Sequence record: PZ445487.1
Reading direction: 5' to 3' (one strand)
DNA from: a phage
Length of the DNA stretch: 64,000 nucleotides
Made by a program: the position numbers and the translations under genes. This document shows, in pieces, positions 704-58,400 of this stretch. The notes beneath the pieces were generated by a model. That model worked only from the letters and a program-made list of their open reading frames with translations. It ran no database searches and was not told where the DNA came from. Positions within the stretch are counted from its first letter, which is position 1, and each line of letters begins with the position of its first letter.

Positions 704-1366
704 CTATGATAACTCATGGCGATGTCGAACACAGGCAGGGCAATCACAATTCTTTTTCAAAATTGGCAATTCACACCATGTCATTAAGTCATGTATTGGG
801 GACATGTGATGATAGAACCAAGATTTCTTGAGACTAATCAATGGATATAAAATTTCAATAGATCTTTCCCCGTCTCTGGTCATCATGTTGTATCCTTCAA
901 TAACTTTATTAAAGGCGGGTATCCAGTGTATTGCGTCATCGCCGTTAACATATGCCAAGATATACGTGGGTGGCAAGCCACTGCCTTTAAATTGCGTGTT
1001 TAATAACCATATCGGGGCTTGTGCTAAACAAGCGCGAAAACCACCGTTCGGGACGTTGATGCTACTGATAGGTTCTTGATGATGTGTCCAACGATACATG
1101 AGAAGTGGGGCATTTTTATTAATCCAGTTGTATATTTTATTCCTCGCCCAATTTTCGCGTTTAGATTTAAATTTATTATTTTCGAGGTGGCAATACACAG
1201 TATGAACTGAATATCCTTTCGATAGCAACCAAATCAACATGTATGTGCTATCCACCCCACCAGACCAGAACAACGTCACTTCTTGATTATTCTGCGGCAA
1301 TGGAGCATCCCCTTGAAGAACACGGTATACAAAATCACAATCAGATATTGAGACAACAATTTCCAT
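704..1366 (-). CDS. queC: PP-loop ATPase, QueC-like (7-cyano-7-deazaguanine synthase family)
   Basis: 220 aa; N-terminal LFWSGGVDSTYML resembles the QueC SGGxDS PP-loop, followed by VH.V....E as in E. coli QueC; C-terminal CDCPAC cysteine cluster resembles the QueC zinc site. Confidence 0.55.
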   Translation of the reverse strand: MEIVVSISDCDFVYRVLQGDAPLPQNNQEVTLFWSGGVDSTYMLIWLLSKGYSVHTVYCHLENNKFKSKRENWARNKIYNWINKNAPLLMYRWTHHQEPISSINVPNGGFRACLAQAPIWLLNTQFKGSGLPPTYILAYVNGDDAIHWIPAFNKVIEGYNMMTRDGERSIEILYPLISLKKSWFYHHMSPIHDLMTWCELPILKKNCDCPACVRHRHELS

Positions 1367-8524: not shown

Positions 8525-9103
8525 TTATAGACCAAATTTACCACGCCACTTTTCAACTTTGTGTTCTATGGCATGTTCTACTTTAACGATCGTGTTGATA
8601 TGGTTTTGATTATACCCACACGCCAATTTGGCAGTATTGCGTATCAGATTTGAAACCAGGTCCACCATATTATCTTCTGAACGTTGAGGTTGGTTCAGTA
8701 AACGAGTGATGCGGCCTTTGTAATGATTAACCATCGCAAGATATTTGTCTATAGTTTCAACACCACTGCAGAACCAATAATCCTCCAACGTATGTTGGCT
8801 GAGATCAGTTGTGTGATTGGCCGTAGCCAAAGCAAACACCATGGAGTCAAAGATTTCTTCTTTGGTCATAGACCCATGTTGTTGAACTTGTTGATAATCC
8901 ACAACATATAATAGATCCAGAGCCGAGATGATAACGTCCGCCACTTCACCGTTCAGGGGTTCGGATGCAGCGATTCCATAAAGCACATCTGATAGTTCAC
9001 AAGACTCTTCCACGAGTTTGCAATATACAAACACAGGAGAACGATTAGGATCGCGCTGGCTGAGTTCATATGATGTGTTGAAGATAATTTTTAGAAAATT
9101 CAT
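8525..9103 (-). CDS. MazG-like all-alpha NTP pyrophosphohydrolase (T4 gp56 dCTPase analogue?)
   Basis: 192 aa; KLVEESCELSDVL and EVADVIISALDLLY resemble the paired E-x-x-E / E-x-x-D helices of the MazG/HisE family. Confidence 0.45.
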   Translation of the reverse strand: MNFLKIIFNTSYELSQRDPNRSPVFVYCKLVEESCELSDVLYGIAASEPLNGEVADVIISALDLLYVVDYQQVQQHGSMTKEEIFDSMVFALATANHTTDLSQHTLEDYWFCSGVETIDKYLAMVNHYKGRITRLLNQPQRSEDNMVDLVSNLIRNTAKLACGYNQNHINTIVKVEHAIEHKVEKWRGKFGL

Positions 9104-21613: not shown

Positions 21614-21636
21614 AAAATCAATCCTTGCAAAAAGAA

Positions 21637-21680
21637 AGGGGAACGGGCTAATAATAACCCATTCCCCTTTATTGAAGAAC
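21637..21680 (-). promoter_or_regulatory. conserved intergenic hairpin element (aggggaa / ttcccct, loop with TATTATT) plus TTCAATAAA
   Basis: Paralogue of the element at 18651..18695; upstream of gene 21422..21613. Confidence 0.35.
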
Positions 21681-21695
21681 GCAATCGCAATCAGA

Positions 21696-21863
21696 TTACT
21701 TTTTCTTCAGCTCGTCCAGTTTGGCTTCGATTTGTTCCAGGATGTCTTTACCCTTCTGAACAATCACTTCACCGTCTTGCGCGTGTTTGCGAAAGACCAG
21801 AGCGCCAGCGATGAAGCCGACAACCACACCAGGAAGCGCATAAACCAACAGATCTTGTAACAT
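21696..21863 (-). CDS. small membrane protein (55 aa)
   Basis: Not in ORF track (<60 aa). ATG 21863 preceded by GAGGA at 8 nt; translation MLQDLLVYALPGVVVGFIAGALVF... has one TM helix. Confidence 0.4.
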   Translation of the reverse strand: MLQDLLVYALPGVVVGFIAGALVFRKHAQDGEVIVQKGKDILEQIEAKLDELKKK

Positions 21864-21898
21864 GATAATATCCTCACTTTATAGCGAGGATATTTATA

Positions 21899-23140
21899 TC
21901 AGCGTTTCAAGAGTGTCATGAGGTTCACACTTTTAGAAGGATACACAGTACCATTTCGGCTCATGGTGTCCAATTTACCAACTGACAAACAAACCTCAGA
22001 CGGTTCCCAACGTGTACCCTGCTGTAAATGCCAGATATGTAGAGGAACACCCGTCTCAAAGAACACGGGCATCTTCCACTTCTGGACGCCTGGAACGTGC
22101 CCTGCAGGAGCCTTCTCACATAACAGGGTATCTGGTAGCCAGAGTGAACGGGCTTCCCAGAGAGGTGCACAGGAGTATTCAGGCCAAATACGTTCCATAT
22201 AATCGATCTCGTCCCATGTACGCTCGGCGTCCCACCCGATGTAACGGGTATTCTTCAGTCGGAAGAATTTCTTCAACCAACAAGCACCGGAGGTCTCAAA
22301 GTTCAGACGATTGATAAACGTGATGTGGCCAAACTCTTCAACGCATTCCTGAAACGCTTTCTCAAGGTCGGTTTCGAGTATATCACATTCTTCGTCTGTA
22401 ATAGGACAACCGTTAATCTTTTTCTTCCCGTGCTTGGTCACCCAATCATCACGGTTGGATAAGAATGCCGCGCCGTTACGATTGGATTCGCTACCATCAC
22501 GGTCACGCAACATGAAACCAGGGACGTCTATATCCCATATGTTACCGAAGACCATGTTCAGGGCTTCCAGGAAGTTCCATGCGCTCAGGCGACCGAAGTA
22601 TTTCCATGACATCGCCGTATTCCACAGTTCGGTGAATTGGTCTTCCTTGGTAGTGCATTCCAACATCCAACGAAAAGAATCCATTTGGGTTTTACCACCC
22701 AACCAATCGATATAGGACTGAACGCACGGAATCATCTTCGACTTACGATAACGACAATCTGTATCGAAGCGCATACGATCAAAGTTCAGGTTATACCAAT
22801 CAGAAAATCGCTGAAACTCTTTCGGAGATTGTGGGGGTACAGGAAATTCACTGTAAATTGTCCATGGTCCAATCCCATTATAGCAACAACCCCACAAAAA
22901 GGCCATCCAAATCTTGCGCTCGATCTTCTCGAGCTGTGTGATGCCTTCTGTAACCTCGATGGCATAATCCATCAGACGGACTTGCTGGTTATGCTCTTCA
23001 GTGTAGGATAGCGCCTCCACCCATGCCTTGAGCAGGTACATGCGATTTTCTGGCTTACGATAATCTACTGCCAGATCAATCGGGTATTTCCATTTTTCAG
23101 GGGCTTTATATCCCTGCGGCATTTTAGAAATGTGTATCAT
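21899..23140 (-). CDS. hypothetical protein (413 aa), Trp/Cys-rich
   Basis: Long ORF on the coding strand; no motif recognised. Confidence 0.55.
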   Translation of the reverse strand: MIHISKMPQGYKAPEKWKYPIDLAVDYRKPENRMYLLKAWVEALSYTEEHNQQVRLMDYAIEVTEGITQLEKIERKIWMAFLWGCCYNGIGPWTIYSEFPVPPQSPKEFQRFSDWYNLNFDRMRFDTDCRYRKSKMIPCVQSYIDWLGGKTQMDSFRWMLECTTKEDQFTELWNTAMSWKYFGRLSAWNFLEALNMVFGNIWDIDVPGFMLRDRDGSESNRNGAAFLSNRDDWVTKHGKKKINGCPITDEECDILETDLEKAFQECVEEFGHITFINRLNFETSGACWLKKFFRLKNTRYIGWDAERTWDEIDYMERIWPEYSCAPLWEARSLWLPDTLLCEKAPAGHVPGVQKWKMPVFFETGVPLHIWHLQQGTRWEPSEVCLSVGKLDTMSRNGTVYPSKSVNLMTLLKR

Positions 23141-23322
23141 CCGATTTTACTCCCGAGTTCAACACGGAACGCCAGATAGAAGAAAGTGGCGATCGATACT
23201 GGACAGATCACCAAGAATGGGCGCTGTTGCACCCCTTCTGTGACCATGACGCCGACCAGCGAAACCGTAAAGATAACGAACATCAGCATCATGAAGATAA
23301 AATCAACATGCTTGATTTTCAT
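23137..23322 (-). CDS. small membrane protein (61 aa)
   Basis: Two hydrophobic segments; ATGA overlap with downstream gene. Confidence 0.4.
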   Translation of the reverse strand: MKIKHVDFIFMMLMFVIFTVSLVGVMVTEGVQQRPFLVICPVSIATFFYLAFRVELGSKIG

Positions 23323-23689
23323 CTTTCACTTCCTCTACAGGAGAAACAACTTCAGGCTCAGCTTCGGGAGCCAGCTGAATTTCTTCGGGGCTTACTACGG
23401 GCTGTCCCAGAGACCAGATAGGCAGGAAACGACGATCATTCGTCACCAACCAAATTTGCTTGGCGGTTTTCGTCTTTTCGGAAATAAAATGCTGGGCATT
23501 GACCTGGGTACGAGCCAAACCCACCTGACGCCAAGAACCGAAATCCTTAGAAGAAGGATTGGTATTCAGTTGAAATTGTGGGACGATTTTATTCTGTTCC
23601 GGATAATAACGGACAGCGTTAATCATCTTCGCATCACCACGGTAATCAATAGCAACAGCGACAACGTTGCGTGGAATGAGGATTTTCAT
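23303..23689 (-). CDS. hypothetical protein (128 aa)
   Basis: ORF track. Confidence 0.45.
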   Translation of the reverse strand: MKILIPRNVVAVAIDYRGDAKMINAVRYYPEQNKIVPQFQLNTNPSSKDFGSWRQVGLARTQVNAQHFISEKTKTAKQIWLVTNDRRFLPIWSLGQPVVSPEEIQLAPEAEPEVVSPVEEVKDENQAC

Positions 23690-23690
23690 T

Positions 23691-23894
23691 TTAATTCCTT
23701 TTGAAACTCTGAATTATGTTATAGACGAAAGGCGTTAATAAGATAGCACCCCCCAAATAATATAACGCGTAAACGTTCAATATTTCGGTTGAATCCAACT
23801 CAACGATGCCCAAATATTTCATGACACCGACAAGCACAGCTGTGATACACATCACCAATCCGACGAACACAAAATATTTAGACATCTGTTTCAT
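23691..23894 (-). CDS. small membrane protein (67 aa)
   Basis: Two hydrophobic helices (FVFVGLVMCITAVLVGV, YYLGGAILLTPFVY). Confidence 0.45.
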   Translation of the reverse strand: MKQMSKYFVFVGLVMCITAVLVGVMKYLGIVELDSTEILNVYALYYLGGAILLTPFVYNIIQSFKRN

Positions 23895-23896
23895 TT

Positions 23897-24802
23897 CTAA
23901 CCCTTACTCAACAGGCCGAGAAGGGATACAGAGGACTTTGTTACCTCTCCCTTGGCGCTCGCCTTGGTTTTAGATTTGGTCGCCTTCTCAGGGACTCGAT
24001 GCGCTAGAGGATCATCCCCACCGACTTCACGCGTCATTGGGTCAGTTTCACAGAATCCGTAGAAATCTTTGATGTCCAGACCCATGGCGTGAAACTCACC
24101 ACGCATTTGATGATGAATAGCGTTGCCAATCACCCATAAAGGTGCATCAAACGGCATCATGGCTAATTCGCTATCATTTCCTGTTTTGAATTCTTGAGTG
24201 TTTGTAGGCGATTGACGGTACAACACGTCTTGCCCGCTGTAGTCATTGACCACCACTTCCCAACCCAGCACCAGCATTTCAGTCTTCGACTTCTCAAACT
24301 CCTTGGAGTAAGATTCGTTGCGTGACCAGCCGGAGTCCCCTGCTTCCTTACCAGAGCGACCACGGATGCGTGCATCATACTGATAGCGGTCTGGGTATGC
24401 AAAATAAAGCAACGCCAGAGATTCAATCGGATAGTTCTTGAACATCCATTCAGGACGCCATTTATCCGATAGCATGAGGGGTTCACCCTCGCACACCAAA
24501 GTGTAACCCTGAGCCAGCCAGCCTTTGACCAGATCACGGGCGATATCACCCGAGCCTGTGGCGGCGTGGATGGCGTCCATGGAAGTCCAGGAAGCCAGGC
24601 CGGATTTGTTGGACACAGTATACTGGCCAACGAAGATTAACTTCAGCTCTTCGAACTTCAGGCCGAATGGGCGCGTCTTGTCACCAATGGTGTAGGTGAG
24701 TTCAGTAGGCTCCAGCTTAGTTCGGAGCCATTCGATGAACTGGACTACTCTCGTACCCTTGCCCGTGGCCGAGGTGCCTTTCACTACAATTATTTTAGCC
24801 AT
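23897..24802 (-). CDS. P-loop kinase (dNMP kinase gp1-like or 5-hydroxymethyluracil DNA kinase-like)
   Basis: N-terminal Walker A IIVVKGTSATGKGT resembles the T4 gp1 N-terminus pattern. Confidence 0.55.
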   Translation of the reverse strand: MAKIIVVKGTSATGKGTRVVQFIEWLRTKLEPTELTYTIGDKTRPFGLKFEELKLIFVGQYTVSNKSGLASWTSMDAIHAATGSGDIARDLVKGWLAQGYTLVCEGEPLMLSDKWRPEWMFKNYPIESLALLYFAYPDRYQYDARIRGRSGKEAGDSGWSRNESYSKEFEKSKTEMLVLGWEVVVNDYSGQDVLYRQSPTNTQEFKTGNDSELAMMPFDAPLWVIGNAIHHQMRGEFHAMGLDIKDFYGFCETDPMTREVGGDDPLAHRVPEKATKSKTKASAKGEVTKSSVSLLGLLSKG

Positions 24803-25050
24803 TATGCATCTTCCTCAATACGCCAGCTCACACCGCCCAACCAGGGAGACCAGAAAACAGCAACCTGTGGACGTTCGTTTTCTACAAACTTCACTTTATA
24901 CTGGTCTTCAAAGTTATAGAAAATTTCATCGTCATCTGGTGCCATACCGTTTTCTATCAGAACACGCTTTAACTCCAGCGCCGCACCAACGGAAGTGGGT
25001 GTGGTTTGTTTACGAATGAAGTTGTTCACATGGATAATAACGCCATCCAT
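24802..25050 (-). CDS. hypothetical protein (82 aa; start uncertain)
   Basis: Start moved to ATG 25050 to avoid overlap with the HAD gene; stop overlaps kinase start. Confidence 0.35.
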   Translation of the reverse strand: MDGVIIHVNNFIRKQTTPTSVGAALELKRVLIENGMAPDDDEIFYNFEDQYKVKFVENERPQVAVFWSPWLGGVSWRIEEDA

Positions 25051-25117
25051 ATCGCTATCACCGGAACGCTTGTCTGGGGTTTCCCCAAACTTAGATTGTT
25101 CTTGCACGATGTCCTCC

Positions 25118-25900
25118 TCAACGGACGTATTGATAATGGCCAATCAGGCGATTCACCACTTCGACAATATTACGGTTCAGGAAGTCGAAGTGGTTCTGGC
25201 CTTCTACTGGTTTAATATAAAGCATATCTTCCGAGTTCGAAAGATCCAGTTTTTCATAATTTCCCTGAGGAACAAAGATGACAAAAATATTGTTCATCGC
25301 ACAGGGTTCAACGTATTTCGGGTTATCATCAATTAAAACATCACCTGCCAAAAGATGCTTTTCGTCGGTGCTGACAAACCCGTTGAAGATGCCAGGGAAC
25401 TTGTCATAGACAAACTGGCGCTTGCTGCGCTCGTGTTCTGGCTCACACTTAGATACTGCGATCAATTCAACATTTTCAAAGTCTTCGAGTAGGATCTTCT
25501 TCAGATTCACCAGGAACTCGTAAGCGCCTGGAAGCGGGTTCATCTTGGCATACAGGTCCGGCATGCGCCACCAATCCATAGGATCACGTCCTGTAGGTGA
25601 ATCCATCCATTGACCAGCAACAAACACACGGCGTGTCAACCATGCTGGGTGAGCGCGTTCCCGCATGAGGATCGCCAGATCACCAGCATGAGCCATATAG
25701 CACTCTTTGGTGATTGGTTGAAATTCAGATGGGTAGTCGTGACAACCCATGTTTTCCGCAGCAGCTTTTGAATTGGAAATATTAAACCAATCCACCCAAG
25801 GGGAGAGGCTATCAACCAAAGTCAAGTCTACGTCTACCAGGATACGATACATTCCACCGATTTTAGAATTGGCATCATACAGACCAACATGATTATTCAT
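25118..25900 (-). CDS. HAD-superfamily phosphatase (5'-deoxynucleotidase-like)
   Basis: Start ATG 25900 (GGAG at 8 nt); motif I ILVDVDLTLVD (DxDxT) and later LIDDNPKY (DD motif). Confidence 0.5.
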   Translation of the reverse strand: MNNHVGLYDANSKIGGMYRILVDVDLTLVDSLSPWVDWFNISNSKAAAENMGCHDYPSEFQPITKECYMAHAGDLAILMRERAHPAWLTRRVFVAGQWMDSPTGRDPMDWWRMPDLYAKMNPLPGAYEFLVNLKKILLEDFENVELIAVSKCEPEHERSKRQFVYDKFPGIFNGFVSTDEKHLLAGDVLIDDNPKYVEPCAMNNIFVIFVPQGNYEKLDLSNSEDMLYIKPVEGQNHFDFLNRNIVEVVNRLIGHYQYVR

Positions 25901-26237
25901 CAGACTTCTCCACTTGATCATAACCAGTTGCGGTGCATTGCTCTTCTGTGCAATCTGCATACAGAACCACAGAAGATTCCTTCACGTAAGTGGTGCAGTG
26001 ATAGGTTTCATCTTCCTGGATGGAATCATCATAATTGCAAACAGTTTGCAACGGACCAGGAGTGGTGTTGTCCAAAGCTGCATGTGCCTTGATGGTGTCT
26101 TCCATCTTATTCACCGCTTGCTGATTGGTGAACGTCGGCGCATCGAGGTCAACAGTAGACGCAACGTCCAGAAGGGTAGAGCATGCAGTGGTAGAGAAAG
26201 CCAGAGCACACACCAGAAGAATCTTATTGAGTTTCAT
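25893..26237 (-). CDS. putative lipoprotein (114 aa)
   Basis: Start ATG 26237; N-terminus MKLNKILLVCALAFSTTAC is signal-peptide plus lipobox-like. Confidence 0.5.
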   Translation of the reverse strand: MKLNKILLVCALAFSTTACSTLLDVASTVDLDAPTFTNQQAVNKMEDTIKAHAALDNTTPGPLQTVCNYDDSIQEDETYHCTTYVKESSVVLYADCTEEQCTATGYDQVEKSDE

Positions 26238-26261
26238 AACAATACCTGTTGTCAAAGGGAT

Positions 26262-26300
26262 AACAGGGGGAATTATATCCCCCTTTGGTTTATTGAATCA
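26262..26300 (-). promoter_or_regulatory. hairpin ggggg-aattatat-ccccc (sense loop GATATAAT) between DNA polymerase stop and lipoprotein start
   Basis: Third copy of the TTCAATAAA-plus-hairpin motif; the -10-like TATAAT lies in the loop. Confidence 0.35.
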
Positions 26301-29294
26301 ACCTTTCTTGCCCATCATGGACAACAGATTAACTCGACGTTTATGAGACCAACCAACCACATCCAAGATAGACTGAATTGGCTCTATAAAGGTCTTTTCA
26401 AACGTGGTGTGGTAATCCACCCATTTATCCAATCCCAATTCTGGAGGAAGGAAGTCAGGGAAGGCTATGCGATCATTCCCCACAGGATTGCCAGGTTTCA
26501 GGTTGATGATTTTAACCTTATCACCGGATTCGATAGGCGGAAGACCGAGATCTTCGTGCTTATCGATCAGCTTGTTGTACATAATACAAGCCTTGGCAGC
26601 AAAGTGCGTACCGCTGATGTAATTCCCGTTCGCGTCTAACCACTTCTCAATATCGCTCACACCAGATGCCTGAGCGATATCATCCACGGTGAGTTCCATA
26701 TATTCCTTTTTGTATCCAGCGATTAATTCCTGAACCTCCGCCTCAGTACCGAGCAGGACTTTCTCATAACATTTGACAAGACGCTCACGACACCATTCCG
26801 GCGTTGTAGATTTACGCGCTTCCAGACCTTTGAATTTGATCTTTGGTTTCTCATACTTGATGCCTTCGCTATCGTATACTGCCATGCAATACATCTTCTT
26901 GGCTCGCCATACAGCAGACGATGCGATGACCTCACGTTCCCAGACCATGCGCTGCTCAAACCCGTTCATGGTATTACACAGCAATTGCGCCCATTCACTA
27001 GTTTTTGGTTGGTAATTCTCTTTGATCCATTGGTCGATGTTATCAACAAGTTTATGATGATCCTTTTCATCAGGCCATAATTGCTTGACCAGGCGTTCAA
27101 TGCAAATATAATTGGAGTCTGTATCACCTGCGATAACAAAATCCTGACCAGTAGTACCACAAAGTTTGTTCAGATAATCATCAGTGTGGCGTTTGTTCCA
27201 TTTATTGATCAGCTGGCCGGAAGTGGTAATTGCTTCAGCGATGTTGATGTTGAAGTATTCTTTAAACCAGACGTTAGAAATTGCACCATATCCTGCGTTC
27301 ATCAAGATCTTCAGACCTTGTTGTAACGTATCTTGGGCAACTCCCAAATCTTCCCACTTGTGCATGACTTCGGTCAGGTGATCAAGGTCGATATGCTTGT
27401 GTTCTTCATACCATTCAGGATCGTAGAAACGAGACTTCATGGCGGATTCAAGGTGGAAATCACCTTTAGACATTTCCTTACACCAACCAGCCCATTGCTC
27501 ATACTTCAGGCCAGTTGCTTTCTCTCCTTTACGGTCAGCGTATATGCCTCGCATAATTTCGGAAAGGAAGGACATCTTCTCATTACTGAAGAACTGAACG
27601 TTCGGGGTAAAAGAAACGTTATAACGGCGTAACGTTTCAAAATGGAATTCACCCAGCGCGACCAATTCATCAACAACTTGTATGCGTTCATCAATAGCAC
27701 GCTGCAGCTTGTCGTGAAGATTTTTGAGATGACGGCGCTTGTTCATAGGCGTTGTCATATCATTCATCGCTTTGGTCAATTCTTCACACATGGACTCAAT
27801 GATATCGCGACGTGTGTGCTTGTCAGAAACGATAGTCTCAGGACCAAGGTTGTATTGCTGTATGATGTGGGGATACAGGGAGTTTAAGTCCTCAGAGAAT
27901 ACCCAGAAATATATCCCTGGTGCAACCTCCATGACATATGCGCCTTCAAAGTCCGTTGGACCATCATATACACGCTGTATTTTAGGGACAATCCCCTTTT
28001 CATAAAGACGATAGTAACACATCGCCAGCCATGGTGCTACAGTCCCAAGACCGTCTTCATAGTTAGATTTGGTGCGATACGCCAATACGAACATCAGCTG
28101 TATCAAACGCAGCTTTTGTTCTAAACGCCACACGAGTTTGACGTCTTTGATACCATATCGGGTGTGTTTGCAATAATCATTAAAATATAGATCATACAAT
28201 GACTTGCTTTCACTATAATCCAACTTCTTCTCACCGAGTTCACAATAAGCGATCCAATCCAGTGAGTATTTTTCGCGGGTCGTGTACGTGTGTTTCTTGT
28301 AAACTTGCATGTAGTCCATCATAGGACAACCGACGAATTGATAAGAAGTCACGTCGCCTTTACGGTCTTTGATGAAACGTTTCTTGAGTTTGCTCCAAGG
28401 ACTGAGACGCTCTGCCTGAGTTTCACCGAGAACCTGCGTAATACGTTCAACCAAGTACGGGCTATCAAACGTTTCGATGTTCCAGCCAGTCCAACCATCA
28501 AATTGACGTTCAGACCAATAATCTAAGAAAGCGCGAAGAAGTTCTTGTTCAGTAGTGTATTCTTTGTATTCAACCTCAAGACCACCTATCTCTTCATCAT
28601 TTGGATCATATTTGAATTTATGGCGATCCTTAGAGCACGGCATACCCCAGACATAGAACTTGTTGGTGTTCATGTCTTGAAGCTGGATGAGCGTAATAGG
28701 GAAGGCGGCATTCATGTTCTGTGTGATCTTCCCATTACTATCAATGATAGGGAACTGGTCAGTCACGTTGTTGGAAATAAAGGAACCTGGGAAATGCTCT
28801 CGAACGAAATCATGGTTGGCCAACACTTGCTTATGAAATCGGCGAACACGCGCCTCGCTCCCCTTAAACGTGTGGGATTCAATCGTCGCGTGAGGAAATG
28901 GACCTTTAGTCATTTCTCCATCGCGCCACCCAGCCGAGAAAACTTCGATATCCACGTTGGCGATGTGAATATTTGAGTAATCGGGGGTAATCATCCCAGG
29001 AAAACTATGCGCTATGAATTGATATGCATAATCCGTTTGCCCGTAAACGGCAGCGCCTTCGACCTCCTTATATTCCTCCAGATAGTTGTCGGCGTCACGC
29101 ATTGACGCAAATTTTTTAGACACCAACGGTTCATTGAGGAGGCCAATCTTTTCAACTTTGGAATAATCGGCTGTGGGTAAATACAAGGTGGGTTCGAATT
29201 TCTTACGCAACATACGGCGATTGCCGTTGTCGTCTGCAATACGAATCAGAAGGTCGTTACCCTGTCGGGCAACGTTCGTATAGAAAACAGTCAT
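26298..29294 (-). CDS. 43: DNA polymerase (T4 gp43-like, family B)
   Basis: 998 aa from ATG 29294 (MTVFYTNVARQGNDLLIRIADDNGNRRMLRK parallels the T4 gp43 N-terminus); the ORF-track start at 29453 adds 53 unsupported residues. Confidence 0.9.
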   Translation of the reverse strand: MTVFYTNVARQGNDLLIRIADDNGNRRMLRKKFEPTLYLPTADYSKVEKIGLLNEPLVSKKFASMRDADNYLEEYKEVEGAAVYGQTDYAYQFIAHSFPGMITPDYSNIHIANVDIEVFSAGWRDGEMTKGPFPHATIESHTFKGSEARVRRFHKQVLANHDFVREHFPGSFISNNVTDQFPIIDSNGKITQNMNAAFPITLIQLQDMNTNKFYVWGMPCSKDRHKFKYDPNDEEIGGLEVEYKEYTTEQELLRAFLDYWSERQFDGWTGWNIETFDSPYLVERITQVLGETQAERLSPWSKLKKRFIKDRKGDVTSYQFVGCPMMDYMQVYKKHTYTTREKYSLDWIAYCELGEKKLDYSESKSLYDLYFNDYCKHTRYGIKDVKLVWRLEQKLRLIQLMFVLAYRTKSNYEDGLGTVAPWLAMCYYRLYEKGIVPKIQRVYDGPTDFEGAYVMEVAPGIYFWVFSEDLNSLYPHIIQQYNLGPETIVSDKHTRRDIIESMCEELTKAMNDMTTPMNKRRHLKNLHDKLQRAIDERIQVVDELVALGEFHFETLRRYNVSFTPNVQFFSNEKMSFLSEIMRGIYADRKGEKATGLKYEQWAGWCKEMSKGDFHLESAMKSRFYDPEWYEEHKHIDLDHLTEVMHKWEDLGVAQDTLQQGLKILMNAGYGAISNVWFKEYFNINIAEAITTSGQLINKWNKRHTDDYLNKLCGTTGQDFVIAGDTDSNYICIERLVKQLWPDEKDHHKLVDNIDQWIKENYQPKTSEWAQLLCNTMNGFEQRMVWEREVIASSAVWRAKKMYCMAVYDSEGIKYEKPKIKFKGLEARKSTTPEWCRERLVKCYEKVLLGTEAEVQELIAGYKKEYMELTVDDIAQASGVSDIEKWLDANGNYISGTHFAAKACIMYNKLIDKHEDLGLPPIESGDKVKIINLKPGNPVGNDRIAFPDFLPPELGLDKWVDYHTTFEKTFIEPIQSILDVVGWSHKRRVNLLSMMGKKG

Positions 29295-32973: not shown

Positions 32974-34167
32974 TTAGCTGGGGACAAACTCATTCACAGG
33001 AACATGTTCAGGTATTGATAATTCAGGACAAGCAGCTTTCATCGCTTCCAGATATGGCTTGCTACCCACGATCCAAAACAATGAGTTCTCATTAAGCAAT
33101 TCTGGTTTGTGTTCCTGTATCCATGTCATCACCTTCCCTTCATAACGAGGATGCAACTCAATATCTCCCCACTGGTAATCCATGAGGTCGTTGTAACGAA
33201 CCCAATTAGTGGTATGAAGATCCCAATGGTGTACCTCAAAACGAGGAAGCACGATATCCGGCTCGTTCTTTGGCCTGATACCACTTAGGAGGCCAGCCAG
33301 CGAAACGCTCTTAGAGGCATGCTGGAGATCCTTCTTACCATACACATAGTCTGGGTTGTCGTGATAGCGACGAGTGAAATCAGTTATGTGAGGGAGGTTT
33401 GCTTGCTTACCGATAATGCGCAAACGACTTTCAATGAAATCTAATCGGTTTGGGCCAATCCCGATCAGATAAACATTCTTCAGATTTGGTTTCGGATGCA
33501 TCGCCAAACCTGTCAGGATACTGGTGCATGAATTACAAGAACCAGCAGGAATGATCAGATCAGTGATATGGTCTGGGATATTGGCAACCTGCTCGCCACC
33601 CAGCATATGGAATCCAGCAATGCGTTCTGGTGAATGAACGGTATGATCCAATGTAATGCCATATTCCAGATAATACGCCTTTGGATTTAATTGTTCAATG
33701 AGTTTCTTACAGCGCGGCTGAATGGTGCTATTGTAACCAGATCCAACAAAGTTGAACTCACTACCAAACCATGCTGACATTGAAACCATATCATGATTCA
33801 TGCATGTGGTTGGTTTAGTGGCACCCAGCACAGTGGTTGTCTTACCGCCGAAATGCCGTGAGACTGCCGTCGCCATAGGGGACTGCGGACTACCAACGAC
33901 AGTACCATGGATAAGATCTGGGGATCCTCCAGCTTTCAGATGCTCCATCATGAGCCAGATGGCCTGACGGAGTTTGCTGCCATTGATCCCCTGCTTGCCA
34001 TTCATATAGCATGACAAAGGCGCGAAGTAATCTTCACGTTTGAACCAAACCTGCTGATTGGTTTCTGGATTGGCAATGAGTTCGCACGGGGTGTGTTTGT
34101 AGAGATAATCTTCCCAATGAACCAGATCGCGGTTGAGGGAAAGAGTATCGAAGATGGTTTTGTTCAT
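32974..34167 (-). CDS. PLP-dependent enzyme, fold-type II (ACC deaminase / D-cysteine desulfhydrase-like)
   Basis: 397 aa; NGSKLRQAIWLMMEHLKAGG resembles the GGNKxRKLEF PLP-lysine motif. Confidence 0.5.
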   Translation of the reverse strand: MNKTIFDTLSLNRDLVHWEDYLYKHTPCELIANPETNQQVWFKREDYFAPLSCYMNGKQGINGSKLRQAIWLMMEHLKAGGSPDLIHGTVVGSPQSPMATAVSRHFGGKTTTVLGATKPTTCMNHDMVSMSAWFGSEFNFVGSGYNSTIQPRCKKLIEQLNPKAYYLEYGITLDHTVHSPERIAGFHMLGGEQVANIPDHITDLIIPAGSCNSCTSILTGLAMHPKPNLKNVYLIGIGPNRLDFIESRLRIIGKQANLPHITDFTRRYHDNPDYVYGKKDLQHASKSVSLAGLLSGIRPKNEPDIVLPRFEVHHWDLHTTNWVRYNDLMDYQWGDIELHPRYEGKVMTWIQEHKPELLNENSLFWIVGSKPYLEAMKAACPELSIPEHVPVNEFVPS

Positions 34168-36319: not shown

Positions 36320-36930
36320 ATTAGGACGGGCTTCACACCCGATTGTGCATTTGATCTGCCGTAGCCCAACTCCCCGCGCTTATCAGCGCCGATTGGTTAA
36401 CTGGCACCAGTGCCTTCTGGTTCGATCTCCTGGAACTTTACAGGCTTCGCGCCCGACCATTTCTGGAAGTTGGGGCATCGTTTTCGATGTGGAGTCACCC
36501 CATTTTATACACAGCTGGCTGCAACGCTTACTGTGTTTGGTCTACCACCACGTGCTGGGCCACGCTTGAGGACATCGGCCATCCTTCCTCAGCTAATCCA
36601 CGCAGTGATAGATTTGTATCAGAGTGTCCGGTGTAGCTTTCCGTGAGGTGCGCACTACTGTAGCCTCTACACTCTGAATTTGGTGGGCGTTACTTTCGTC
36701 GGGTTCAGATTCCGTTCGGCTATTGGACGTCGCTCGAGAGAACTTGTCGTTCGCGTACTTCGTGCTTACTTGCTTTCGTTTCACACCCATTGTTTGTCGT
36801 CGGGCGGGGGATTCAAACCCCAATCTTTAGTTTGCGTTTCTTCAAAGCTATCATATGTTCACTTTGAATACTAGACTCCCCTGGACATCAAAACAGGATC
36901 TCTATTCCATCCTGCAAGACCCGACATAAT
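36320..36930 (-). other. GC-rich ORF-poor spacer between tRNA genes with a T-arm-like motif (ggggattcaaacccc at 36806..36820)
   Basis: No convincing ORF; only a low-complexity 76-aa frame; candidate stable RNA. Confidence 0.3.
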
Positions 36931-36932
36931 CC

Positions 36933-37008
36933 TGGCGACGACGGCAGGACTTGAACCTGCGACATACGATTTAACAGACCGCCGTTCTACCGACTGAACT
37001 ACATCGTC
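36933..37008 (-). tRNA. tRNA-Asn (anticodon GUU), encoded CCA
   Basis: Hand-folded: acceptor GACGATG/CGTCGTC, D-arm GTTC-AGTCGGTA-GAAC, anticodon arm GCGGT-CTGTTAA-ATCGT, T-arm GCAGG-TTCAAGT-CCTGC, discriminator G, CCA. Confidence 0.8.
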
Positions 37009-37182
37009 TCTATTCTTACTTTCGTAAACATTCTTTATTCTGCATGAAGACCCAGGGCAGGATCATAACGATCGTAAGTTTTTGGATGAGACCCGTTCTT
37101 GATGCTCACCATCCGACCTTCCCAACTAGCGCGAATTCTGTTGGAAATTACCACCCAAATATTCTTCATAATATAGAACCCT

Positions 37183-37383
37183 TCAACTATGTTTATTCGC
37201 TTCGATCGCCCCTAATTGGGCGTCCGCGTCAGCTTTGGTGTCATGTGTCCCAAGAACTTTAGTCTTGGTGTGGTCAAGGACAACCCACTTATCGCCTCGC
37301 TTTTCAACAAACTCAACAATCTCTTTGTTGTCAGTAGCGAGACCATCCCACTCAGTAAGAAACTCACCGAACGTTTTCATCAT
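37183..37383 (-). CDS. small hypothetical protein (about 66 aa) inside the tRNA island
   Basis: ATG 37383/37380 after GGTGAG; CTAAATA-like motif (plus-strand tatttag at 37412..37418) upstream. Confidence 0.3.
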   Translation of the reverse strand: MMKTFGEFLTEWDGLATDNKEIVEFVEKRGDKWVVLDHTKTKVLGTHDTKADADAQLGAIEANKHS

Positions 37384-37420
37384 ACTCACCAATTGTTTAT
37401 TGAACAACTGGTTTATTTAG

Positions 37421-37495
37421 TGGTGACCCTGGCTGGACTTGAACCAGCGACCAATCCCTTATGAGGGGGCTGCTCTACCACTGAGCTACAGGACC
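37421..37495 (-). tRNA. tRNA-Met or tRNA-Ile2 (anticodon CAU), encoded CCA
   Basis: Hand-folded: acceptor GGTCCTG/CAGGGTC (two G.U), D-arm GCTC-AGTGGTA-GAGC, anticodon loop CTCATAA (one C.A mismatch in stem), T-arm GCTGG-TTCAAGT-CCAGC. Confidence 0.7.
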
Positions 37496-41198: not shown

Positions 41199-42980
41199 AT
41201 GGCCACGCAAACAGTTCCTTCACTCGACGTCAGAGCATTTGAATACATTATTAAACAGCGAATGAAAGCTGATCCCACCTTTAAAGATTATGACTTTGAA
41301 GGTTCTGGTCTTAGTGCGATTATTCGTTTGTTGGCATCTGACGCGAACGCCATAGCCTTTATGCAAAACATGCTTAATGGTGAAGGCCATTTGAAGACAG
41401 CAAATCAACGTTCAAACGTCGGTTTATCTGCTGCATTTCTTTCCTACACGCCTGACAACTATCGGGCAGCATACATGTATGTCAACATCAAAGTTACGCC
41501 TTATGACGCCAGCACAGCCCCCAATGAGATCATCATGGATCGGCGCGTAATGTTCGTTGGGGCAAAAGACGGCAGTTCCTACAACTTTACTGTTGAGAAA
41601 CCAGTGTCGGCAACGTTGACTGCAGACGGTTATTACATGTTCAACAATGTAAAGTTGGTACAGGGGAATTGGTTGTACAAGACATATGATGTTGAAGGAA
41701 GCGCGATTTCAACATATACGATTCCTTCTGGGAATGTCGATATCAATCATATGGTCGTGCAAGTACAAGAATCAGAGTCTTCCGACGTTTCGACGACATA
41801 TCAACGTTACAACAGTCCATTTGATCTGAGCCAATATGCCTACCTGTATTTCGTAGAATTGGGTATTGATGGTCTGTATGTGTTTGAATTCGGAGATGGT
41901 TATCTTTCGCGTCGAGTAGAAGATGGGAACGTCATATTCCTTCAATACTTAGAAACTTCTGGTGCTGATGGGAATGATATTACAAGCCTGTCATCAGCGT
42001 CATCCATAGGCGGGTTTAACCAGGTCGACGTAGAATTGGTTTCCGAACGTAGCGCAGGTGGAGACGATCCGGAATCTATTGAGGACACTAAACGGTTGGC
42101 TCCTTTAGCTTATCAGGCTGATGGTGCTGCGGTTACAGAAACAGATTATGGTGTATTGACTGAAAGGTTATTCTCCAACGTCTCCCGAGCTAAATCATAT
42201 GGTGGTGACACGCTGTCTCCTCCTGATTCTGGCTATGTTTACATCGCTGTTATACCTTCTGTTGGTGAGACACTTTCGGACGCTGAGAAGGCCGATATCG
42301 TTGCTGCTCTGGACAAGTATAATGTGGGATCTATTACCCCCAAAATAGTAGACTCCGAGATCACATATATCCAAGTCTCAACGACTATATTTTGGGATCC
42401 TACTTCTACAGTCTACGTTGAAGAACAGATGAAAGTTGTTGTTGGAAACAGTATCGTTAAATGGGGTGAAAATAATCTCGGCGGATTTGACCAATTGTTT
42501 GACAAAGAAATATTGCAGGAAGCAATTACGAAAATGGAACGTTCTATCAACTCGAATATTACTTCAGTTGGTTATAAACGCCATTTCAAACCTGATTATG
42601 GAGTCTTAGACAGTTTCACATTCAGTTATGGACGAAGTATCAAACCTGGTTCTGTGAAAATAACGGGGTTCAAACCGCTTCCTGCCGAGGTGGATTTCAC
42701 TTACTACATGCGCGACAATAATGGCGATTTGAACATGTATAAAGTGAATAACAATGACACGACAAAAGAGTTTTTAGTTCAAAAAACAGGGGTTGTGGAT
42801 TATGCAAATGGGGTTGTAGACCTTCAACAGATCACGGTCTCCAACTATAACCCTGAAGGGGTGACCATAGTCGTGTTACCGGATGGACTGAACCAGAACA
42901 TACAGGCTACACAAAACCAAGTATTCAAGATTGGTGATGTGGTTGTTACGCCAGAGGTGCGCTATGTCCAAAGATCTTAA
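41199..42980 (+). CDS. 6: baseplate wedge protein (T4 gp6-like)
   Basis: 593 aa from ATG 41199 (GGAG at 6 nt); FKDYDFEGSGLSAIIRLLA...TANQRSNVGLSAAFLSYTP parallels the T4 gp6 N-terminal region. Confidence 0.8.
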   Translation: MATQTVPSLDVRAFEYIIKQRMKADPTFKDYDFEGSGLSAIIRLLASDANAIAFMQNMLNGEGHLKTANQRSNVGLSAAFLSYTPDNYRAAYMYVNIKVTPYDASTAPNEIIMDRRVMFVGAKDGSSYNFTVEKPVSATLTADGYYMFNNVKLVQGNWLYKTYDVEGSAISTYTIPSGNVDINHMVVQVQESESSDVSTTYQRYNSPFDLSQYAYLYFVELGIDGLYVFEFGDGYLSRRVEDGNVIFLQYLETSGADGNDITSLSSASSIGGFNQVDVELVSERSAGGDDPESIEDTKRLAPLAYQADGAAVTETDYGVLTERLFSNVSRAKSYGGDTLSPPDSGYVYIAVIPSVGETLSDAEKADIVAALDKYNVGSITPKIVDSEITYIQVSTTIFWDPTSTVYVEEQMKVVVGNSIVKWGENNLGGFDQLFDKEILQEAITKMERSINSNITSVGYKRHFKPDYGVLDSFTFSYGRSIKPGSVKITGFKPLPAEVDFTYYMRDNNGDLNMYKVNNNDTTKEFLVQKTGVVDYANGVVDLQQITVSNYNPEGVTIVVLPDGLNQNIQATQNQVFKIGDVVVTPEVRYVQRS

Positions 42981-55488: not shown

Positions 55489-58400
55489 ATGCAATCTACA
55501 AATTTAAACCGTCGCCCGTATTGGGATGACTGGAATCCTGGGAAACGTTTTTCACGGATTCTTTTTCGTCCGATGCCTATCAAGGTTCAGACTCGCGAAC
55601 TGAACCAGATGCAGACTATTCTTCAGGATCAAATTGAAAAACTGGGCAACCATTTGTTCAAAGATGGTTCTATGGTTATCCCTGGCGGTTTGACGATCAC
55701 TAACGCCGCAGTCTCTTTGAAATTCACTTTGGCGGGTGGTACTGAATTCACCGATCTGGAAGGTATTTCTGAACTCTACGTTTTGGGGAAAGACAATAAC
55801 GCCAAAGCGCGTGTGTTGTCTCTTGAACGTGATCTGTCTGCTCCTGATACGATGTTAGCCATCCTTGAGATGACTGAAGCGGGTAATGCTGACGGATTCC
55901 ATGTTAACGATAATCTGTATTTCCAGACTTACGACGTGAATGATAATTTCATTCGTATTGGTTATGGTATCGCAGCTGCGGTGACTGGTTCTATCGTTGC
56001 TCGTATGACGAAAGGCGTTTACTTCATTCGTGGGATGTTCCTAGACGTTGATGACGCGACTCTTATCGTTGATAAAACTTCGAACACGTCTTCCCACCGC
56101 GTCGGATTTAAAGTCACTGAAACCATCGTGACTGAATCTGAAGACGAATCCCTTTATTCAAATGCTCAGGGAACGATTAACTCCAAAGCCCCAGGCGCTC
56201 ATCGTCTTCGAATAGATCTGGTCTTATCCCGATTTGACTATGACGCGGTGGTTGAAGACTTTGTTGAATTGGCCAAAGTCCGTGATGGTAAAATCCAGTC
56301 TATGGTGACTCAGTCTACCTATAATATTCTGGAAGACACGTTAGCCCAACGGACTTATGAAACCAATGGCGATTACAACGTTTCAACCCATCAGATCGAC
56401 ATCCGCGAACACCTGAAAGTCAATAACAATGGTGGTGTATTCAATGCTGCTGATGGCGGTGACGAAAGTAAATTCGTGTCTGTAATGAAACCAGGTATTT
56501 CCTATGTTCGTGGTCGCCGTATCGAAAACGTCGGGGAAGAGTTGGTGATCGTTGATAAGGCGCGGGATACCGATGTCCTGAACAACACTCCTGTTGCGGT
56601 GGCCACAGGCAATTATCTGGTCACTAAGAATTCTAAAGGTGTGCCAGTGATATCCCGCACCGTCCGATACAAATTACTGAATGCTTCAGGCGTTACCCAG
56701 GCTACAGCACTTTGTATATCAGCTGAACGTAATTCAACAGAATTTCGTCTGTATATGCGCGACCTGGTCGTTACTGGCGATGCATCCACTATCACCAAAG
56801 TGTCTTACGAAGAAAGCGGTATCACCATGTTCTCTGCTGAACTGGAATCCAATCAGTTTAACCAGAGTTCTATGATAGATCTGATCTTCTCTCTTCCGGT
56901 ATTCGGTGTCAAGACTTTAGCACCAACTGGCTCCGTGGATATCAACTACACTGTTCTCAGAACGTATAAAGTGACGTTGGACAACAGCGGCGCGGGTTCT
57001 ATTTCTGCTCCATTGGGATATAGTTTTTCCCCAGAATTTTCGTTATACTCTGCAGCGAAATCAGATGGTTCGGAAGCGCAGTTCGATATCTCTGGTTCTT
57101 TGTCTTTGACTGGTTCTCCGGTCGGTTCGGCGCTGCAGATTTCTCTGGGCAGTGGTAATGCTAACCAGTCAATCAATTTGCTGGCGCTGATGATTCGTAC
57201 CACGGCCACAATCAAAACGAAGACCATCACTGAAACAACTGAAACAGTGACGTTCACCTCGCAGACTAGCCGCCCTTTGGCGAATCACGATGGTTGGAAA
57301 TTGGTGTCGGTCAAAAACGATACTGGCGCAGACGTGACCTCCAGCTTCGTCCTAGATGGCGGACAGCGTGATGCAGGGTATTACAAGTCTAACTTGTTAT
57401 CCAGCGCTGGAGCAATCTCAGGGACGTATACAGTGGTGTATCAATACTTCGCCCACAGTTCCGGTGATTTCTTCTCTGCTGATTCGTATACTTCGATGGA
57501 TTATAAAGATATCCCGAATTATACATCTTCTACATCAGGCGCGGTGTACGGCCTGGCAGATAGTTTGGATTTCCGTCCGAAAATCACCAACGGAACTTCT
57601 GACACAGATATGGTTCGTCCAAACACTGCAGTTATTCTGGACACAGAATATTATCTGCCGCGTATTGACGCGATTTATCTGGCAGACAACGGCGTGTTCG
57701 GAGTGGCTCGTGGCATCAGTTCGAACAATCTGGCTTCTCCAGCAATCCCAGCGAACGCCATGCGTTTGTATGAATTGTTGATCCCGCCGTATACACCGAA
57801 TATTGATGATATTCAAATTCGAACTATTGATAATCGTCGTTATACGATGCGCGATATTGGTAAACTGGAAACCCGTATTTCCAATGTTGAATACTATACC
57901 TCTCTATCACAGCTGGAATCTTCAGCGATGACACAGCAAGTGTTCGACCCCATCACGGGCAATCCCCGTTTCAAAAATGGTATTGCAGCTGATCCGTTCA
58001 AAGACTTCCGGTTGATTGATGACTTGTCTGAAGATTGGATGGGTTCTATCGATACCGAAAACGGACGTCTACGCCCGTTTGTACAACAGAACGTTGTTGA
58101 CATGACTCCTGTTGGCTGGAACAAAGTGATGGATGGGATGGTGGTTTGTAATTACACGCCTGAAATCTCAGTGAACCAAGAATATGCGACGACGACGATC
58201 AACGTTAACCCGTATGCAGTATTCAATTGGGAAGGTTTCTTGAAGATTAACCCGACCACAGACTACTGGTTCGAAAACTATTATGTTGCGCCGCGTATTA
58301 TCAATGAAACGATCAACACCCGTGGTACTGTACAAGAAGGTTCAGTGTACGGAACATGGCGTACTGTTTCTGTTTCTGATCGTGTTTGGGAACCGCATGG

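Follow-up and report, generated by a model that had tools for sequence, protein, structure and literature searches.

The 64,000-nucleotide stretch of phage DNA analyzed here (sequence record PZ445487.1; hereafter the window) carries a cluster of genes beside a DNA polymerase gene, which an earlier reading made from the letters alone (the sequence-only reading) had proposed to serve thymidine hypermodification or the exclusion of dTTP. Window bases 21800-26300 were 100% identical to Escherichia phage CBA120 (NC_016570.1 / JN593240.1), reverse strand. The start of the CBA120 record falls inside the window, which spans it, and coordinates were converted as record = 174302 - window at window positions >=16998 and as record = 16998 - window below 16998. 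The five open reading frames (ORFs) that the sequence-only reading had named (23897..24802, 25118..25900, 21899..23140, 32974..34167, and 8525..9103) were all present on the minus strand, each equal to an annotated CBA120 gene. The genes of the cluster, and the two named genes lying apart from it, are as follows.

26298..29294, minus strand: orf237, B-family DNA polymerase, homologue of T4 gp43 (annotation, translation); first gene of the co-directional string
25893..26237, minus strand: orf238, DUF7292, lipoprotein-like (signal peptide and Cys), with an 8-nt overlap with the start of the HAD gene
25118..25900, minus strand: orf240, HAD-superfamily 5'(3')-deoxyribonucleotidase-like phosphatase, 260 aa (NT5C match, motifs, predicted fold)
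24802..25107, minus strand: orf242, DUF7254, conserved between the HAD protein gene and the kinase 2 gene
23897..24802, minus strand: orf243, predicted 5-hydroxymethyldeoxyuridine (5-hmdU) DNA kinase 2 (HMUD2), 301 aa (PF18747, orthologue of ViI gp243)
23691..23894, minus strand: orf244, small, conserved, membrane-like, between kinase and transferase
23303..23689, minus strand: orf245, small conserved ORF, between kinase and transferase
23137..23322, minus strand: orf247, small, conserved, membrane, between kinase and transferase
21899..23140, minus strand: orf248, predicted amino acid:DNA transferase (aGPT-Pplase clade 2, ADDT), 413 aa (PF18724, orthologue of ViI gp247)
21696..21863, minus strand: orf249, last gene of the polymerase-to-transferase string
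21635..21670, minus strand: terminator-like hairpin of 16 bp, closing that string
32974..34167, minus strand: orf228, predicted pyridoxal-phosphate (PLP)-dependent O-serinyl-thymidine decarboxylase, 397 aa (orthologue of ViI gp226)
8525..9103, minus strand: orf013, putative all-alpha nucleoside triphosphate (NTP) pyrophosphatase ('MazG-like'), 192 aa (PHROG 1247, EExxE...ExxD motif)

The polymerase gene lies directly upstream of the cluster on the same strand, and the run of genes from it to orf249 keeps to that strand, neighbors being separated by, or overlapping in, a few bases. At its longest the HAD ORF reaches 25960; the homologues and the GenBank record begin at 25900. More than 270 phage genomes have kept the genes, which rules out chance ORFs. 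A search of NCBIfam gave 0 matches for all five named proteins, and a promoter scan, which found 16 candidates against 13.6 expected from shuffles and hence no enrichment, was not used.

Kinase, transferase and PLP enzyme

The virion DNA of CBA120 contains a nucleoside of 301 Da, 5-(2-aminoethoxy)methyldeoxyuridine (5-NeOmdU), in place of ~40% of thymidine (Lee et al. 2018, PMC5889632), and the phage was used in a 2021 study as one that "natively synthesizes 5-NeOmdU" (Lee et al. 2021, PMC8989533). The enzymes of the pathway are those of Salmonella phage ViI (NC_015296): the kinases gp67 and gp243, the serine:DNA transferase gp247, the PLP decarboxylase gp226, and the aGPT-Pplase1 gp160. Both gp243 and gp67 phosphorylate 5-hmdU within DNA; purified gp247 places serine onto the product, 5-phosphomethyldeoxyuridine (5-PmdU), to give O-serinyl-thymidine in a Cys/Glu-dependent reaction; and purified gp226 decarboxylates this to 5-NeOmdU (PMC8989533). 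The genes orf243, orf248, and orf228 stand in the same order as those for gp243, gp247, and gp226. With orthologues 86–94% identical, the same order and neighbors, and the same product in the virion DNA, we found no difference between CBA120 and ViI in the pathway itself. The kinase, transferase, and PLP steps of ViI/CBA120-type hypermodification, to which the sequence-only reading had pointed without fixing the roles, could be assigned to orf243, orf248, and orf228, respectively; the family models PF18747 and PF18724 were matched by the first two, and the PLP enzyme was placed by its orthology to gp226.

The kinase orf243 matched PF18747 ('5-hmdU DNA kinase 2') with an E-value of 1.8e-149 and 497 bits (cut-off 25), residues 1-300 aligning to profile positions 1-298 of 298. 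It is 86% identical to ViI gp243, its gene neighborhood is the same, and a Walker A motif, GTSATGKGT, lies at residues 9-17. With the activity carried over from ViI gp243, orf243 is predicted to phosphorylate 5-hmdU in DNA to 5-PmdU. RefSeq and PHROGs label the protein 'guanylate kinase', and this label, together with the P-loop fold, would suit a cluster devoted to ordinary nucleotide salvage, in which a guanylate or dNMP kinase acts on free nucleotides beside a housekeeping nucleotidase and nothing acts on DNA. In Pfam, however, no guanylate- or thymidylate-kinase family was matched and PF18747, a DNA-kinase family covering the full length of the protein, was the sole match; moreover, salvage is already refuted for the ViI orthologue by its action on 5-hmdU in DNA (PMC8989533), and CBA120 DNA contains 5-NeOmdU (PMC5889632). 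We therefore regard salvage as extremely improbable and the database label as one to be corrected. Some HMUD2 homologues (proteins P0179-P0181; phrog_15209) are 495–527 aa long and have an N-terminal endonuclease-like extension; these could be homing-endonuclease fusions or mis-joined genes in Limestonevirus/Taipeivirus-like phages.

The 413-aa protein orf248, a further candidate in the sequence-only reading, matched PF18724 ('amino acid:DNA transferase'; E = 1.9e-57, 195 bits, cut-off 26.2) and is 86% identical to ViI gp247, which makes it a predicted serine:DNA transferase. Its residues E282 and C287 stay unchanged across an alignment that extends to a mycobacteriophage homologue at 27% identity, and they correspond to E243 and C247 of PaMx11 gp46 (PMC11472151); both Glu and Cys are essential in ViI gp247 and in M6 gp51 (PMC8989533). 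From the identity to gp247 and the 5-NeOmdU in CBA120 DNA we infer that orf248 uses the serine hydroxyl as nucleophile, replacing the phosphate of 5-PmdU to give O-serinyl-thymidine. Sequence searches of solved structures with the kinase, the transferase, and the PLP enzyme, even with a small profile, gave nothing useful, and because of this the structure of PaMx11 gp46 is tied to orf248 only by membership of the same Pfam family and by the Glu/Cys motif.

The PLP enzyme orf228 scored 31.4 bits with the PALP model, below the cut-off of 35. It is nevertheless 94% identical to ViI gp226 over 394 residues, and its Schiff-base lysine is kept as K65, equivalent to K92 of ViI (in GINGSKLRQ). By transfer from gp226, orf228 is predicted to decarboxylate O-serinyl-thymidine to 5-NeOmdU.

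In the proposed order of events, phage DNA would be made with 5-hmdUTP instead of dTTP (as shown for the ViI orthologues and CBA120 DNA), and orf243 would then phosphorylate 5-hmdU within the polymer. The Cys/Glu pair of orf248 would expel the phosphate via an exocyclic methylene intermediate, to which the hydroxyl of free serine would be added, and decarboxylation by orf228 would yield 5-NeOmdU, with ~40% of thymidine replaced. Further genes of the pathway and of nucleotide metabolism lie in CBA120 outside the window.

CBA120 record 36770..37432: orf074, PF18748 HMUDK1, orthologue of ViI gp67
Outside the window: orf073, thymidylate-synthase (TS) homologue, dUMP hydroxymethylase
Outside the window: orf072, small P-loop kinase
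Outside the window: orf070, dUTPase_2 protein, adjoining the hydroxymethylase gene
Outside the window: orf037, dCMP deaminase
Outside the window: orf156, PF18723, aGPT-Pplase1, orthologue of ViI gp160

Like orf243, the HMUDK1 genes carry a label that needs correction: CBA120 orf074 and M6 gp54 (record 41685..42248) are both annotated as 'terminase small subunit'.

A peptide shared with the DNA polymerase

The DNA polymerase and the DNA-acting enzymes of CBA120 were found to share a short peptide, which stands at the C-terminus or, in the PLP enzyme, in an internal loop.

26301..26342, minus strand: C-terminal tail of the DNA polymerase, KRRVNLLSMMGKKG
23900..23935, minus strand: C-terminal tail of kinase orf243, SSVSLLGLLSKG
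21902..21934, minus strand: C-terminal tail of transferase orf248, KSVNLMTLLKR
33277..33315, minus strand: internal loop of PLP enzyme orf228, SKSVSLAGLLSGI, at about aa 285-297 (motif scan)
CBA120 record 28731..28943 (locus L005 11732..11944), minus strand: orf058, 70 aa, Cys-rich, near the ligase gene, with the shared tail

The four copies in the window have the consensus V-[SN]-L-[LAM]-x-[LM]-[LM], and outside it the aGPT-Pplase1 orf156 ends in a variant, ...RSINLLEKMKK. When the whole CBA120 genome was scanned in six frames with the strict pattern, there were five matches only, namely the polymerase, HMUD2, ADDT, the PLP loop, and orf058. In counts set against shuffles, 5–7 matches were observed and 0.09–0.18 expected, and all of the matches lay in real genes. 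The codons differ among the four copies in the window and therefore the likeness is at the level of the peptide. The terminal motif persists across 82 representatives of HMUD2 clusters, preceded by a hypervariable linker.

The CBA120 motif was not present on HMUDK1, the HAD protein, the MazG-like protein, the TS homologue, the dUTPase_2 protein, or the dCMP deaminase. The ligase, RNase H, gp55, and clamp-loader homologues of CBA120 gave no convincing match, the best being RNase H with a score of 11.5 in a position-specific scoring matrix (PSSM) scan. The scan is circular for the six proteins on which it was trained and for this reason we relied on independent genomes instead. Its next-best match (15.8) was the internal sequence QSINLLALMIRT in orf209, a virion protein of 1612 aa (record 113975..118813; window ~55489..60327), and is probably due to chance.

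The Vibrio phage 144E46.1 (Ackermannviridae) has a different tail. Genome-wide, the ending [KR][KR]L[WF] occurs on six proteins and no others: the polymerase, the gp33 homologue (...KTRKLF), HMUD2, ADDT, aGPT-Pplase1, and p0073 (record 56741..57007), the counterpart of orf058. At the aligned position of the PLP loop the orthologue reads KTRRLF, and the gp55 homologue contains ...AKLF... A third, LG[GAS]FF-like type is shared in PhiW-14, a phage of a different genus: the polymerase ends ...KLGAFFV, the gp33 homologue ...SLGGFAAT, the kinase gp37 ...GLGGFFKG, the putrescine transferase gp109 ...GLGSFFR, and gp72 ...TLAQFAP, and an exonuclease also has a tail of this kind. The CBA120-type tail is carried by phiMAM1 and phiEa2809 as well. 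No common tail was found in Pseudomonas phage M6, whose polymerase belongs to the A family and whose orthologues of the enzymes are shorter.

The alpha-putrescinylthymine pathway of Delftia phage PhiW-14 (gp37, gp109, gp72) offers a comparison within phages having a T4-like replisome. In both phages 5-hmdU DNA is acted on by enzymes of the same families, which end like the polymerase of their own phage and in PhiW-14 also like its gp33 homologue; the differences are that the nucleophile is putrescine, that no PLP step was detected, that the tail is of the LGGFF type, and that there is a single kinase, of the HMUDK1 type.

HAD protein orf240 and MazG-like protein orf013

The description of orf240 as a HAD 5'-nucleotidase-like phosphatase held: the protein matched NT5C (PF06941) with 33 bits (cut-off 24.8), and the HAD catalytic motifs and the predicted fold of the family are all present. 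The closest structural matches are pyrimidine-preferring 5'(3')-deoxyribonucleotidases. Relative to solved members of the family, orf240 has an insertion of ~70 residues between motifs I and II. The HAD gene adjoins the kinase 2 gene in four divergent lineages, down to ~35% identity. CBA120 does not incorporate 3H-thymidine (PMC3184105) and the classical 5-hydroxymethyluracil (hmU) phages make dTMPase and dTTPase (PMC8989533); therefore, a dTMP-directed nucleotidase is the likeliest role for orf240. It is a predicted deoxyribonucleotide 5'-monophosphatase of the free nucleotide pool, most likely with dTMP as its target, and as such would contribute to excluding thymidine nucleotides from replication.

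For orf013, the sequence-only reading had suggested a MazG-like NTP pyrophosphatase. The metal-binding EExxE...ExxD motif and an all-alpha predicted fold resembling dimeric dUTPases bear this out; the curated families do not, the protein having no match in Pfam or NCBIfam. It matches PHROG 1247 and, at an E-value of 0.23, weakly MazZ. On its predicted fold, orf013 could be a dUTP/dTTP hydrolase and could exclude thymidine nucleotides at the triphosphate level. The dUTPase_2 protein orf070 is at least as good a candidate for the dTTPase. Profile comparison of orf013 with orf070 and with orf157, both NTP-pyrophosphatase-like proteins of CBA120, detected no similarity and was uninformative.

It is conceivable that orf240 is not specific for dTMP, being instead a general dNMP phosphatase or one whose substrate is a different phosphate ester, 5-PmdU in DNA for instance, and that orf013 has no part in exclusion. 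This alternative concerns the specificity of these two proteins only. In PHROGs, the NT5C-like phage proteins make up a large group without an assigned function, and they occur also in phages not known to modify thymidine; for instance, the HAD homologue PhiW-14 gp18 is annotated as similar to an rV5 protein. The gene for orf013 adjoins topoisomerase genes and lies 15 kb from the cluster, and Kutter et al. ascribed thymidine exclusion to dUTPase (PMC3184105), a dUTPase-family gene, orf070, being located beside the hydroxymethylase gene. On the other side stand the pyrimidine-preferring structures nearest to orf240, the persistence of the HAD gene beside kinase 2 in divergent lineages, and the dTMPase of the classical hmU phages; in addition, orf240 has no polymerase-like tail, which argues against a DNA substrate. 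Taken together, we consider the alternative possible but somewhat doubtful.

The Bacillus hmU phages (SP5C, phi-e, and the SPO1 group), with their dTMPase and dTTPase-dUTPase, combine thymidine exclusion with a dUMP hydroxymethylase. CBA120, which likewise excludes 3H-thymidine and encodes a putative nucleotidase and a putative NTP pyrophosphatase, resembles them in this combination. In phage M6, gp59, an HD-superfamily hydrolase (locus L021 21039..21674), directly follows the thymidylate-synthase homologue and may be the functional counterpart of the CBA120 nucleotide-pool hydrolases.

Proposed clamp recruitment and its alternatives

The T4 proteins gp43, gp33, and gp55 bind the clamp gp45 through C-terminal peptides that can stand in for one another (PMC2988020). 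The gp43 C-terminus, EKASLDFLFG, is such a peptide, and T4 ligase binds gp45 by an internal loop that was recognised through its likeness to the gp43 tail, an argument from which the T4 ligase-gp45 structure followed (PMC6212786). The tails described above are of the same kind, in that each is a short hydrophobic peptide resembling the polymerase tail, which lies either within an inserted loop or, following a linker that varies, at the extreme C-terminus. The residues differ (LDFLF in T4 versus VNLLSMM, KKLW, and LGGFF in the modifying phages), and the clients on the CBA120 side would be base-modifying enzymes. In each lineage the peptide that marks the enzymes also ends the polymerase, and in two of the examined lineages the gp33 homologue too. 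Given the T4 precedent and the shared tails, the simplest explanation would make the DNA-acting hypermodification enzymes of phages with a T4-type replisome (Ackermannviridae, PhiW-14) clients of the sliding clamp, and we consider this on balance probable. The clamp itself is orf163 in CBA120 (record 89839..90507) and p0018 in Vibrio phage 144E46.1, and as its clients we propose the 5-hmdU DNA kinase, the two aGPT-Pplases, and the PLP decarboxylase. The small Cys-rich protein of the DNA ligase region, which has the polymerase-type tail both in CBA120 (orf058) and in Vibrio phage 144E46.1 (p0073), may be another.

If so, the shared peptide would recruit the DNA-acting enzymes to newly replicated DNA via the clamp, the pool-acting enzymes being without the peptide, and modification would be physically coupled to the replication fork. 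A tethered HMUD2 as against an untethered HMUDK1 might contribute to the partial (~40%) and reportedly sequence-dependent modification.

The shared tails could instead bind another partner, such as the single-stranded-DNA-binding protein, the helicase, or the packaging machinery, or they could be basic DNA-binding tails, degradation signals, or an over-read pattern. The patterns were defined after the sequences had been seen, and the Vibrio-type tail is very basic. Furthermore, neither the gp33 nor the gp55 homologue of CBA120 has the CBA120-type motif, the former ending ...KSKKLI, like the Vibrio-type tail, and the latter having no such motif. Aeromonas phage TSW001 (loci L013/L014) mixes the types: its polymerase ends ...KKKVNVLKFFKQKEA, which is CBA120-like, and its transferase and the next gene end ...KKLW, which is Vibrio-like, so the tail on a polymerase and those on the enzymes can differ. 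Against these points, the tail of one orthologous set of enzymes is of unrelated sequence in each of three lineages and matches the polymerase C-terminus each time; in two lineages the C-terminus of gp33 is matched too, and gp43 and gp33 are the classical gp45-binding epitopes of T4. In addition, the internal-loop version mirrors T4 ligase, the matches are all in real genes where 0.1–0.2 were expected, and M6, a phage with PolA, has no tail. We therefore regard a function of the tails unrelated to the clamp as rather unlikely.

Combining these lines of evidence, the region very likely represents the post-replicative half of the CBA120 5-NeOmdU pathway, accompanied by HAD and MazG-like proteins that would act on the nucleotide pool and by a proposed recruitment of the DNA-acting enzymes through the clamp. 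What weighs against this, besides the mixed or missing tails, the post hoc patterns, the wide occurrence of NT5C-like proteins, and the distant position of orf013 already mentioned, is of three kinds. The activities of orf243, orf248, and orf228 are transferred from the ViI orthologues and not taken from the CBA120 proteins themselves. The ViI pathway was reconstituted in vitro without any clamp (PMC8989533), and thus the tail is not needed for catalysis. Finally, the interaction with gp45 that had been reported for T4 alpha-glucosyltransferase was not reproduced (bioRxiv 10.64898/2025.12.06.692756).

The assignment of the cluster to thymidine hypermodification is already known for this phage group and, being textbook, holds no new biology alone; it is the tails that raise interest beyond it. 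Polymerase-like tails on DNA-acting enzymes appear to be new: the papers on the ViI pathway (Lee et al. 2018 PNAS, 2021 NAR) do not discuss such tails, nor HAD or MazG-like genes, and in the searchable literature, the coverage of which is incomplete, we found no report linking hypermodification enzymes to the clamp. A clamp peptide on these enzymes, if real, would be a concrete mechanism for post-replicative hypermodification, and would bear on how hypermodification finds each new duplex before packaging and why part of the hmU is hypermodified and the rest converted to T. It would also extend the clamp "toolbelt" to base-modifying enzymes, with a bearing on the disputed interaction of T4 alpha-glucosyltransferase with gp45, and C-terminal tags on modification enzymes could then mask the peptide in vivo. 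In eukaryotes, DNMT1 is a DNA-modifying enzyme that is brought to new DNA by a peptide binding the clamp PCNA; the proteins and their chemistry are unrelated to those of the phages and the likeness is by analogy only.

Two further genes of the window carry labels that touch on nucleotide modification. The DUF7254 protein orf242 is named 'putative thioredoxin' in relatives and was considered as a thioredoxin-like reductant for the conversion of hmU to T; this was rejected because the protein has no cysteine. The gene orf028 (window 704..1366, minus strand) is annotated as 'QueC-like queuosine biosynthesis' in a phage whose modification is of thymidine, not deazaguanine, and its matches to PP-loop ATPases are weak (QueC 23.5 bits, ThiI 20.9 bits).

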